A stretch of DNA of 64,000 nt from an uncultured Planctomycetia bacterium (GTDB lineage: Bacteria; Omnitrophota; Gorgyraeia; CAYVEO01), in contig CAYVEO010000001.1 of assembly GCA_964449965.1 (NCBI GenBank), positions 15,189 to 79,188 on the forward strand, in the 5' to 3' direction. The notes under the pieces were generated by a model, which was given only the letters and a program-made list of their open reading frames with translations, ran no database searches and was not told where the DNA came from. Positions within the stretch are counted from its first letter, which is position 1; every line of letters begins with the position of its first letter. Below, piece after piece: positions 23,254 through 27,147 of the stretch. Position numbers and translations under genes: made by a program.

Positions 23254-26200
23254 TTAATTTACCAACCCAACCACAGGCTTTAATATAAATCTCACCATTG
23301 ACCTTAAGTATTCATGTCTTGCGATAAAGTCTGCAATAGGTGGGCTCATCCTGTAATAGAACGCCACTAATCTCTTCCCAATCGGGTTAGTCAATAGATG
23401 TGTATCCCTGAATCGGCTCAATGTGACTACATCACTTGCCATTGGTGTTCCATAAGCAGCAGTTGCTATAAAACAGCCTCCGCCCCCACCACCTCCACCA
23501 CCAGACGAACCTTGAGGTGTAGCACTTGACTGAGCACCAGTGGAATAGTTCGGCACTTCATCATAGGCAAAGATTGTGTAGTAACAGGCTGTCCCATTGG
23601 TTAATCCTGTATCTGTCTTGCTCGTCCCTGTCCCTGAATATACCTCTGTCCCGTCTGTTACACTTGCAGGATACCCGCCTGTCTTTCTGATTACCTTTAC
23701 CCCTGCAAAATCTGTATCAGCCGGGTTCGTCCATGTTAGGCTTACCTGTCCATCTCCTGCTGTTGCACTCAATCCTGATGGTGCTGACGGCGCTGCAGTA
23801 TCCTCTGAACCTATTGCAAAGTCACTTAAGTGTCCTACTTTTGCCTTTACCTGCTTATTGGTCGTGTCTACTTCTGTATCAGAAATCTTCTCCCACTTGC
23901 CTGTTGTTGTGTTATACCACCAGAGTTTGAGGTCTTTCTCTGGTATATTCGTCCCATCTACTATACCATTATTATCTGTATCATCGTATGGAATGGTTAC
24001 TGTCACTGATTTCTCCAACGTTGGGTTACCTTCTAATTCTATCTTCCTGAATTTGTCAAGTGATGAATTTGCACCCTCAGTTGTGTTTTGTGGATTCGCT
24101 GGAAGGGCTGTTACTGTAAGTGTAGCATCCTGGGTTAAAGTTCCATATGGTATCTCTACTGATGTGTAGTCCTCCATACTTGATTCTGTAGTCTCATCTT
24201 TGTCTATCTTCTGCTTCTTCTCCCGATTACCACTGTTATCCACACCATCATTTACATCTGGATTCGTCTGAGTTACTGTTACTGTGATGATTTCAGAGTT
24301 GACTGTATTGTCGCTTGTATCTTTCCCTACTGCACGAAGTTGATAGTCACCTTCAGTTAATCCTGTCACATTCCACGTTGTGCTAAAAAATGAATTCGGC
24401 GGTGGGAACATCTCGCTTCCTATGTCTGTCCAGTCTGTGGTTACACCTTTATATTGAAACTTCACGCTCTTGGTAAGATTCCCCGGGGCTGTATTGGCAT
24501 GTAATGTTACATCTGTCCCCCATATACTATCTCCATTCTTCGGCACTGAAATCCAGACCTTTAGGTTAGACGGACTACTTACTGTAAGTGCCACAGAATC
24601 TGTATCTGTTAATCCGTTACTATCCACTACCATTACTGTGGGTGAGTATGAACCCGGCTTGTCATAGACATGGGTTGTTGTTCCTGTTGTTGATGCCCAG
24701 TCATATTCTCCATCTCCTTCATAATCCCAGATATATGCTATGTAACTGCCACTTCCTCCTATTGCTGACCCGGTTAAAGTGACTATTTCTCCTACTGTTA
24801 CTGAAGAAGGACTGCAATTCGCATCGGCAACGAGTGGATTTGTATTGGTTGGATTGGATACAGATATAGTAACACTTGCAGTCCCACTTAATCCATCATT
24901 ATCCGTTACTCTTAGAGTAGCAGTATAACTACCTCCCTGCCCATAGATGTAGCTGACGCTCCCAGAACTTGTTGAGACAAAATCATAAGTGCCATTTCCA
25001 TCAAAATCCATCTCATACTGTTTGATAGTCCCATCTGTATCTGTGCCACTGTAGGTAAATGTTACTGTAAGCGGTGTAGTGCCACTTGTAGATGACGCTG
25101 AGATAGAAGCAGTTGGAGATTTTTTATCTACAGGTGGTGAACTTACAGTTATGGTAACTGAGGCAGTTGCTGTTAGACTATCATTATCGGTAACCCTGAA
25201 ATTTGCTGTCCATGTCCCCGCAGACGAATAGGTTTTAACAGTATTTCCACCTGTATTTGATGACCAATCATAGGTTCCATTCCCATCAAAGTCCCATTCG
25301 TATTTGGTAATACTTCCATCATCTGTCGCACTCCCTGTAAAACTTACTGCGAGTGGTGCAGTTCCACTTGTAGGTGTAGCACTGGCTGTGGCAGTTGGTG
25401 GGTTACTCATTGGCTTGGCACTTACTTGAGATGAATAACTACTCTCATTTGAAGCGAAGTCAACTGCTGTAACCACGTAATAATACGTAGTTCCATTTGT
25501 TAAACCACTATCATTATATTGACTCGCAGTAACTGTGCTCGTATTGATTTTGTTATATCCACTACCACTTGCAGAACTCCGATAAACATTATAACCTGAT
25601 AAATCAGATTCTGTATTATTATTCCAGTCAAGACTTACTGTAGTATTTCCAGCACTGGATGTTAATCCAGTAGGCACTAATGGTGGTATGCTATCCTGGG
25701 GAGTAACACTAACTTCTGAAGAGGCAGTGCCTTCATTTTTTTGAATATCTACAGCCTTTACCACATAATAATAAGTGACACCGTTAGTGAGCCCTGTATC
25801 CTGGTATTGGCTATAAACCTGGGTTGCTGTATTGATTTGACTATACGTTCCGCCACTTAACAGGCTTCGGTATATATTATACCCGGCGAGGTCTGCCTCA
25901 GTATTATCATTCCAGTCAAGACTTACAGTCTCGTTCCCTGAAGTGGCAGTAAGCCCGGTTGGCGAGTTTGGAGGTAAATCCACAGTAGCAGAAGTTGTTA
26001 CGACTTCCAAATAAGGCACTAAATTCCCCCTATAATCAATGGGGACACTGTTATGGTATTCAGTTGAGGCAAAACCCGTAACTAACCACCATGATGAGGT
26101 CTTACTAATGCCATTTGGAACCAATGCCAACGTGAGATAGTTGGAGTTGTCTTTTGGTCCGTTGACTGTGAAACTTCCGGGAGAGAACTCCCACTTATAC

Positions 26201-27147
26201 CAGCCCTGATAATCATTCTGGTATTCAGTGGCGAGAAGGTTACTATAGCCCACCTGATTGTCCCATGTCATCCCGTCAAGTGGGTCCGGTGAGTCTATCA
26301 CCGTCCAACTCCAGTAGGTGCCTTCCCTCCACTGGTCGTTTGATGCATAGTAAACGCCAGTCTTTACGTCTCCTGTCACGGCATCCCCCTGGGCAAAATT
26401 ATGGTCACTATAAGCCCAGAGTTTGTAGCCAACAACTGCCTCGCCATCTGCCAACCCCTGAACAAAGTCGGGGTTGATGGTGAGGTTAAACCCCAAGTAA
26501 GAAATATGCTTAGTCCTGTATCCGTCGTTTGCGATAGTAGTGTGGAGCAAATAGTTTATACCCTGGTTGGTCTTCGTCTGGTTCGCCCACTGCGTCCCAG
26601 TAGTCACACCAGTATCCTGTTCGCATTCAACCCGATAAACTTTACTCTCCAGATTAACCGTAACTGTAACAGTAACTGTCCCCCAGTTGTTTCCGTAGTC
26701 CGTGTCATTAAACGCAAGCGTAAACAACCCGCTCCCGCTCACCGTCCCTGTCATGCCAGTCCCTACGTAGAACCATCTTCCGTCCCCGAATCTACCTATA
26801 AGCGCCGCCACTGGCATCCCGGCGCCTGGATACCCACTTGCTATGTTCTCGTGCGGGTTGCCTCCGGGTCCAAATGTAAGGTCAGAAGAGTTACCCCAAC
26901 TCCCTTCCGCCATGACCGTTATCCTGTCGCCATCCGTCACCTCTATCTTGGTGTCAAGCGGGACAGACACAAAGTCTGGGGCGCCACCCGCCACGTAGTA
27001 TATCTGGCTCGCCGAGTTCCTATCAGCATGAACCTGGTATGTCCCCTGTATTTCCACTGCTTGAGCCTCAACCACCCATAATAAGACCGCAACCGCTATG
27101 TAACGGTGCATATATTTACTTCTACACATCTTCAGCCACCTCCTCAT
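23254..27147 (-). CDS. giant secreted surface protein: N-terminal lectin-like domain, multiple PKD and fibronectin-III domains, poly-Gly linker and conserved [9 protein letters not shown] C-terminal module
   Basis: Signal peptide ([13 protein letters not shown]). PKD units ([58 protein letters not shown]). FN3 units ([33 protein letters not shown]). C-terminus [37 protein letters not shown]...[16 protein letters not shown]. Confidence 0.7.
   Translation of the reverse strand: [1297 protein letters not shown]

Follow-up and report, generated by a model that had tools for sequence, protein, structure and literature searches.

Cysteine-containing C-terminal sorting signals that are processed once their Cys has been modified have been described (10.1101/2023.06.07.544157; see also PMC11980579), and there is a documented connection between MYXO-CTERM and type II secretion (10.1101/2023.06.07.544157). 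In tripartite signals of the MYXO-CTERM type, a short motif abuts a transmembrane (TM) helix, which is followed by an Arg cluster. Two further arrangements are the C-terminal domain of type IX secretion system (T9SS) substrates, which is removed by a sortase-like enzyme, the passenger being attached to the surface, and the Hint domain of Hedgehog proteins and inteins, which is all-beta and comprises about 130-150 amino acids (aa). The protein described here ends in a module that shares features with each of these. It is encoded on the minus strand at 23254..27147 of a 64,000-nucleotide stretch of environmental DNA (assembly GCA_964449965.1, contig CAYVEO010000001.1, positions 15,189 to 79,188), referred to below as the window, and is a secreted modular adhesin-like protein of 1297 aa with a terminal CFI-box-CTERM domain, carried on an integrative element.

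In this adhesin, a hinge of nine Gly (residues 1216-1224; 23476..23502, minus strand) leads into the CFI-box-CTERM domain (residues 1225-1293; 23269..23475, minus strand), in which a CFIATAAYG motif is followed by about 60 residues predicted to be helical. Four residues separate this domain from the stop codon (23254-23256), and the tail after the hinge is 73 aa long. The open reading frame (ORF) and the tail had been quoted exactly in an earlier reading of the DNA (the original prediction), which also counted the nine Gly correctly and placed them slightly off, at about 23480-23506. Its proposal that this run is a potential GGN slippage site is not supported: the codons are mixed (GGT GGT GGA GGT GGT GGG GGC GGA GGC), Tandem Repeats Finder makes no call, and the run is equally long in the nearest relatives.

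The tail matches the NCBIfam family NF041770 (CFI-box-CTERM) over its full length, profile positions 1-69 of 69, scoring 98 bits (whole protein) and 104 bits (tail alone) where the curated cutoff is 40. The module therefore already bears a curated name, which is also present in GenBank annotations of metagenome-assembled genomes (MAGs). The original prediction was right that the tail is a conserved type of C-terminal module, of a sorting or anchoring kind; the module is, however, not unclassified. The profile search that it recommended yielded this family with no known partner enzyme; rather than a well-characterised signal with a cognate enzyme, the tail represents a family that is named and for which no characterisation was found. 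Neither a solved structure nor a partner enzyme or described function could be found for CFI-box proteins, Pfam has no model for them (the adhesin tail and 88 homologous tails matched nothing recurrent), and a profile search of the PDB by sequence with the tail gave 0 matches. The paper by Haft on Cys-containing C-terminal sorting signals does not mention CFI-box (10.1101/2023.06.07.544157). The gene encodes a fairly ordinary modular surface protein, with a tail from a catalogued but functionally orphan family.

As in the rest of this family, the domain occupies the extreme C-terminus, behind a multidomain passenger whose export signal was recognised by eye, and it combines the CFIATAAYG motif and its invariant Cys with a Gly-rich linker. 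All residues that are invariant across the alignment of 88 sequences are intact, and the Cys of the CFIATAA[YF]G motif is accompanied further along by the conserved R, D, G, Y and S-P-P. The adhesin differs from typical members in its carriage on an integrative element, in a Ser (LSRFRD, window 23395-23412) where 92.5% of 319 tails have Arg (LRxFRD), and in the lack, shared with its nearest relatives, of the TM helix and basic cluster that are usual in the family and lie outside the hidden Markov model. No TM-grade hydrophobic segment occurs in the 73-aa tail, the N-terminal signal-like segment being the sole such stretch in the protein, and an LPXTG-like motif ([LIV]Px[TSA][GANS]) is absent throughout, so that the protein does not qualify as an LPXTG sortase substrate; the original prediction had noted both absences in the tail. 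A TM anchor hidden behind a frameshift or read-through was ruled out, none being encoded in the three frames 3' of the stop codon.

A profile built from the 88 tails retrieved 30,086 clusters (50% identity) at E<=1e-3 and 23,960 at E<=1e-10. Among the 150 best-scoring proteins (126 to 2655 aa), the CFI domain is nearly always at the extreme C-terminus, and a motif scan of species-representative genomes gave at least 600 CFI matches. Those listed include Chloroflexota/Dehalococcoidia, Nitrospirota, Desulfobacterota, Proteobacteria, groups of the candidate phyla radiation (CPR), Omnitrophota, Elusimicrobia, Armatimonadota, Planctomycetes and Firmicutes, and Geobacter, Thermodesulfovibrio and Desulfoscipio are among the genera labelled. 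At their N-termini the carriers are signal-peptide-like or lipoprotein-like, their passengers are unrelated, and several genomes or loci hold multiple paralogous copies. Across the unbiased set of 88 aligned sequences, no variation is seen at C, A, T, A, G, L, R, G, Y, S, P and A, and D is conserved in at least 90%; in 319 distinct tails, L25, R29, D30, G39, Y46, S50, P51, A54, R68, L71 and P73 are conserved in at least 97%. A His is present in 82%. The linker before the Cys is Gly-rich, with Gly directly ahead of it (position -1) in 82% of 320 tails; the other residues there include S, R, P, N and F.

Most members continue beyond the domain into a TM helix and an Arg/Lys cluster (61/88 and 56/87 in two sets), while the TM-less members end a few to about 20 residues past it. 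Both sets were picked by similarity to a TM-less query, and the resulting share of about 30% TM-less members therefore applies to them and cannot be read as a family-wide fraction. TM-less and TM-bearing forms are found side by side in many phyla. The closest relatives of the adhesin (P0001, P0234 and the gene of locus L083) are TM-less as well and end in the same ...KPVV[GK]LV[NE]; with the TM-less ending preserved in the four closest sequences, it is a conserved feature rather than an accident.

Given the alignment of 88 sequences, AlphaFold2 models the tail as four helices (residues 21-26, 32-45, 49-71 and 73-90 of the tail), with pLDDT values of 70-83 within the domain and a disordered Gly hinge. 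The CFI domain of the adhesin is basic (pI 10.0, net charge +4.9) and its passenger acidic (pI 4.2), and helices H3 and H4 are strongly amphipathic. Across the family, the domain carries a positive charge in 80% of tails (median +2.9 over all tails).

This organisation sets the CFI module apart from the known systems. Like MYXO-CTERM-type signals, most CFI members end with a TM helix and an Arg cluster; however, a conserved domain of about 60 residues, predicted to be helical, stands between motif and TM, and the TM is optional. The adhesin does not have the sequence of motif, TM and Arg cluster that defines this type, and the cognate CPBP/Rce1-like protease was found neither among 149 immediate neighbour genes nor within 10 kb in 80 loci. 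With the T9SS Por_Secre_tail, CFI shares a similar-sized folded C-terminal domain that lacks a TM and serves diverse secreted passengers, but the former is a beta-sandwich whereas CFI is predicted to be all-helical and occurs in many phyla other than Bacteroidota; no Pfam or NCBIfam match to Por_Secre_tail was obtained on the adhesin tail. The Gly|Cys junction that opens the C-terminal domain is reminiscent of Hedgehog and intein Hint domains, as the original prediction had remarked. This likeness did not extend to the domain itself, which at 69 aa and with an all-alpha model is unlike Hint, and no Hint or intein match was found in Pfam (adhesin and 88 tails) or by structure. Membership of the Hint family was rejected on size and predicted fold, and Hint was retained as a functional analogy of low probability.

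On the basis of its architecture, the protein is regarded as a Sec-exported modular adhesin-like surface protein in which an exchangeable head and a stalk of FN3, PKD and Ig-like domains are followed by the Gly9 hinge and the CFI-box-CTERM. Our preferred reading, held tentatively and at rather less than even confidence, is that the CFI domain serves in envelope docking and sorting, and that its invariant Cys is reactive and becomes covalently modified, probably by lipidation. Briefly, after export the basic, amphipathic four-helix domain would dock on the outer face of the cytoplasmic membrane, and the TM helix and Arg/Lys cluster of most members, both missing from the subfamily of the adhesin, would reinforce this docking. 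An even count of antiparallel helices would place the hinge Cys on the side of the membrane-proximal C-terminus, where it would be modified at the membrane, most likely with a lipid, leaving the acidic passenger tethered via the flexible hinge. The helical domain would act as recognition element and may be cleaved off later by a protease, in analogy to MYXO-CTERM and CGP-CTERM; in diderms, the tethered protein may then reach the surface via a type II secretion-like system. What the analysis shows is the family membership, the architecture, the pattern of conservation, the optional TM, the charge and the mobility of the element, together with a helical fold as a prediction; docking at the membrane, modification of the Cys, cleavage and the route of secretion are inferred.

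Several observations weigh against this reading. To our knowledge, every established tripartite signal has its motif adjoining the TM, whereas about 55-60 conserved residues separate the Cys motif from the TM in TM-bearing CFI members. Because the adhesin has no TM, a processing enzyme that works within the membrane would not find it held there as a substrate. The confidence of the AlphaFold2 model is moderate, and the predicted position of the Cys beside the C-terminus is a topological argument only, made without model coordinates. No candidate enzyme emerged from the neighbourhoods either. When 965 neighbour ORFs from up to 10 kb on each side of the CFI gene in 80 loci were clustered by BLAST, no recurrent neighbour was found, the most frequent being generic response regulators (10/80), and a Pfam scan of the 149 immediate neighbours revealed nothing recurrent and no CPBP, rhomboid, sortase or exosortase; a sortase-like partner, which the original prediction suggested looking for, was not found among these neighbours. 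As for the secretion step, 69/80 loci have no Gsp or Pil genes nearby. Dehalococcoidia and CPR bacteria are not known to have an outer membrane, and since the CFI family is common in such lineages, a link to secretion or pili cannot apply there. Literature searches for CFI-box, NF041770 and the CFIATAA motif found no paper in the library searched, and no experiment on any CFI-box protein.

A possible, if rather doubtful, alternative is that the domain is retained uncleaved as a non-covalent anchor or oligomerisation module, a juxtamembrane base for the stalk, which binds the membrane surface, an envelope component or other CFI domains. The TM-less cargo would then be displayed by association, and the Cys would at most form an inter-chain disulfide. 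The predicted folded helical domain, with conservation distributed across all 69 residues, its basic amphipathic character, the coexistence of TM-less and TM-bearing forms within the same phyla and the lack of any processing enzyme in the 80 loci and among the 149 neighbours are in its favour. However, a single invariant Cys exactly at the hinge is hard to attribute to packing alone, and the carriers belong mostly to lineages generally regarded as anaerobic, in which extracytoplasmic disulfides are not the default.

A second alternative is that the CFI domain or the free C-terminus is a targeting signal for type II secretion or pili, read by a GspC-like PDZ protein or another component, by which the protein is carried across the outer membrane. 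This is unlikely. Gsp or Pil genes lie within 10 kb of the CFI gene in 11/80 loci (a raw count), the only suggestive pattern in the neighbourhoods. Two Nitrospirota loci (L067 and L070) have the CFI gene between gspF and gspG in a gspC-D-E-F-[CFI]-gspG operon; in two Omnitrophota loci (L073 and L080), a gene for a GspC-like PDZ protein, which could recognise the free CFI C-terminus, begins 41-49 nt downstream (3') of a TM-less CFI gene; and in a Geobacter locus (L075), the CFI gene comes next after pilMNOPQ. Giant surface proteins of Omnitrophota have also been reported near type II secretion genes (10.1101/2023.11.21.568195). Against this stand the 69/80 loci that have no such genes nearby, the abundance of the family where an outer membrane is lacking, and the chance that the adjacent cases represent just two or three evolutionary events. 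The link to secretion or pili is suggestive, a lead and not proof.

Self-processing has been considered as a third alternative. Here, an all-helical domain would catalyse an N-to-S acyl shift at Gly|Cys without any partner, and the passenger would be released or handed over to a nucleophile, for instance a lipid or an amine of the envelope, in a manner that is Hedgehog/Hint-like in function. In its most specific form, the Cys would attack the Gly carbonyl and the thioester would be resolved by an envelope nucleophile, giving covalent surface attachment without a sortase-like partner. We consider both quite improbable. Such chemistry would account for the invariant C, T, R, D, Y and S, for Gly at position -1, for the lack of a partner, for the optional TM and for the spread of the family irrespective of envelope. 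The Gly-Cys junction in 82% of tails, the near-invariant polar residues (with His at 82%), the missing partner gene in the 80 loci and among the 149 neighbours, and the presence of the family whatever the envelope type all agree with it. However, a predicted all-alpha domain of 69 aa is unlike any known autoproteolytic fold, Hint and intein families gave no match, residues other than Gly (S, R, P, N and F) are also seen at position -1, and a module of this kind is not known to have a precedent. Finally, it is highly improbable that the adhesin is a truncated member which has lost its TM anchor and whose tail no longer functions: the TM helix and basic cluster of most members are indeed missing, but the ...KPVV[GK]LV[NE] ending is kept in relatives of 74-88% identity from other samples, TM-less forms account for about 30% of the similarity-selected sets and occur in many phyla, and every residue invariant in the 88-sequence alignment is intact.

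Some of the neighbourhoods displayed further features. The gspF/gspG-flanked CFI genes (L070 8432-10786 and L067 2277-10285) belong to Nitrospirota/Thermodesulfovibrio genomes. In L070, the frame that encodes the CFI protein, including its TM and RRKKR cluster, is continuous with that of the GspG pseudopilin, without an intervening stop codon, which means either a fusion or two genes in one frame. The PDZ protein directly follows the TM-less CFI gene at L080 3054-6535 and L073 1130-1912; in L080, the next gene product looked, by eye, Lnt-like and polytopic (apolipoprotein N-acyltransferase), and an S8 peptidase-like gene comes after it. In L004 (548-2149) and L077 (7622-11155), the CFI domain, TM and Arg cluster are followed by an in-frame signal-peptide-like segment and a downstream domain of about 262 aa that is outer-membrane beta-barrel-like, the two copies being 43% identical. 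The arrangement occurs in just 2/80 loci, and a barrel fusion as a general feature of the family was accordingly dropped.

The passenger consists of a series of domains on the minus strand, of which the weaker ones (FN3, Big_7 and others) were scored by scanning sub-regions of the adhesin against Pfam. The N-terminus (start MRRWLK..., residues 1-30, 27058..27147) was assigned by eye as signal-peptide-like, with a basic n-region, an AVAVLLWVV core and an AQA|VE junction. It is followed by a candidate PA-IL/LecA-like lectin domain (residues ~66-164, 26656..26952), a borderline but reasonable call that matches PF07828 with E=2.9e-4 and 21.3 bits, just below the cutoff of 22.5. The alignment covers almost the entire profile (positions 16-118 of 121), and a BLASTP comparison with a LecA sequence gave 30% identity over 102 aa. 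LecA is a free small galactophilic lectin, whereas the domain would here form the head on a long stalk. A second head region (residues 176-392, 25972..26622) matched no Pfam family at E<=10 and nothing in a PDB sequence search.

The stalk begins with two FN3 domains (PF00041; residues 393-580, 25408..25971), of which the second (residues 486-580) reaches 30.1 bits and the first (residues 393-485) 24.1, just under the cutoff of 25. Three PKD domains (residues 582-858, 24574..25404) are strongly supported by PF18911 (PKD_4; 3.5e-28, 97.9 bits against a cutoff of 27) and PF00801 (3.8e-17), each over three stretches. These precede a bacterial Ig-like Big_7 domain (PF17957, 25.2 bits, cutoff 24.1; residues 864-939, 24331..24558) and an acidic linker with a beta-sandwich-like unit (residues 961-1120, 23788..24267) that is Collagen_bind_2-like (PF12904, 22.1 bits, cutoff 22). 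The last unit before the hinge (residues 1121-1215, 23503..23787) is a weak FN3-like call; its best match is Pur_ac_phosph_N at E=0.09, and its sequence pattern resembles the two upstream FN3 units. Of the domains named in the original prediction, the PKD repeats are thus firm and the FN3 pair stands at or near threshold, while the lectin is borderline and the C-terminal FN3 just weakly supported.

Comparison with the closest relatives revealed exchange of the head. Over the part from residue 393 to the C-terminus, P0234 shares 81% identity with the adhesin, but its N-terminus carries RCC1 repeats. The gene of locus L083 is 88% identical over the last 436 residues and carries a TolB-like beta-propeller as head; it lies in an ordinary chromosomal context with genes for ribonucleotide reductase, malate dehydrogenase and succinate dehydrogenase, and with no integrase. 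DNA homology between L083 (8934-11313) and the window extends from 25628 to one base past the stop codon (23253) and is then gone. Together, these relatives point to a conserved cassette of stalk and tail that is combined with differing binding heads, and one of these combinations is carried by the island. Exact-sequence look-ups of the adhesin, of GAPDH and of P0234 returned no record.

The genetic vehicle of the adhesin resembles the P4-like and PICI-like satellites, which have a tyrosine integrase, an excisionase-like helix-turn-helix (HTH) protein and a primase, lack structural genes, and insert site-specifically with a short duplicated core in the 5' end of a gene. Perfect 33-nt direct repeats are located at 17173-17205 (attL), where the core spans the ribosome-binding site of yebC and its first 7 codons, and at 30031-30063 (attR), with the native upstream region of yebC continuing from 30064 on. 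The genes between them are all on the minus strand and comprise, besides the adhesin gene and small ORFs, a tyrosine integrase that abuts attL (17163..18311; PF00589 1.9e-39, phrog_1), an excisionase/HTH-like small protein (18339..18536; phrog_66, phrog_15534), a Toprim primase of primase/helicase-like type for replication (18674..20944), an HTH or sigma-70 region 4-like regulator (22162..22815), an N6/N4 DNA methyltransferase directly upstream of the adhesin gene (27184..28449; PF01555 1.3e-59) and an ORF6N/anti-repressor-like protein (28636..29157; PF10543 6e-32, phrog_4792). No structural genes were found among them. The island differs from the P4-like and PICI-like satellites in that no packaging or helper-interference genes were recognised and a large adhesin-like gene is present.

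A Hainich groundwater contig (L086), 95% identical across yebC-ruvCAB, provides the unoccupied site: the sequence corresponding to 30081-30031 is joined straight to yebC via a single copy of the core, which demonstrates that the 12.86-kb segment is a true insertion. A further contig, 100% identical (L084), breaks inside the repeat. With direct repeats, a terminal tyrosine integrase and an empty site in a relative, the segment is a site-specific integrative element, and the adhesin, as the original prediction had proposed, is cargo of this integrase/excisionase/primase island at the 5' end of yebC. The adhesin-like gene occupies about 30% of the island. No relative of the element primase was found in IMG/VR, and just 7 matches to CFI-box were found there on predicted viral contigs, which indicates that mobile elements seldom carry this domain. 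RuvB shares 99-100% identity with proteins from Candidatus Omnitrophota MAGs, and the following matches are likewise Omnitrophota; by these protein matches, the host of the element is a member of the Omnitrophota.

Comparison of window 17173-17260 and 30031-30110 with positions 1-61 of L086 showed that integration moves the sequence natively found upstream of yebC, including a TATAAT-like box at ~30071-30076, 12.9 kb away. On the element side by attL, the 3' end of the integrase gene has its own TATATAAT-like sequence, so that yebC-ruvCAB may receive a substitute promoter from the island. The reading frame of the integrase continues through the att core into yebC. A second perfect direct repeat of 18 nt, TGTCCAAAAAGTGTCCAC, occurs at 17292-17309 and 29905-29922, about 90-110 nt inside each end of the element, and these copies may be candidate arm-type integrase binding sites. 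A Cys-rich element ORF of 153 aa (window 21638-22099) with many CxxC-like spacings has no match in Pfam or PHROG. Elsewhere in the window (49126-51148), two adjacent paralogues of 334 and 343 aa share the N-terminal sequence MPELRKD... and a CPFC motif; they resemble tandem copies of a galT-like nucleotidyltransferase gene and are unrelated to the adhesin.

With about 30,000 clusters in many phyla, CFI-box is one of the larger orphan families of C-terminal domains in prokaryotes. It stands apart from classical sorting signals in the helical domain, a predicted feature, that lies between the Cys motif and the TM, in its TM-less forms, in its occasional place in type II secretion operons and in having no nearby partner gene. 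The locus described here is a clean, verified case of a small integrative island that delivers an adhesin with a swapped binding head. Knowledge of the CFI function would explain how thousands of surface proteins are held and sorted in uncultivated bacteria, among them the Omnitrophota, a phylum thought to attach to other cells.

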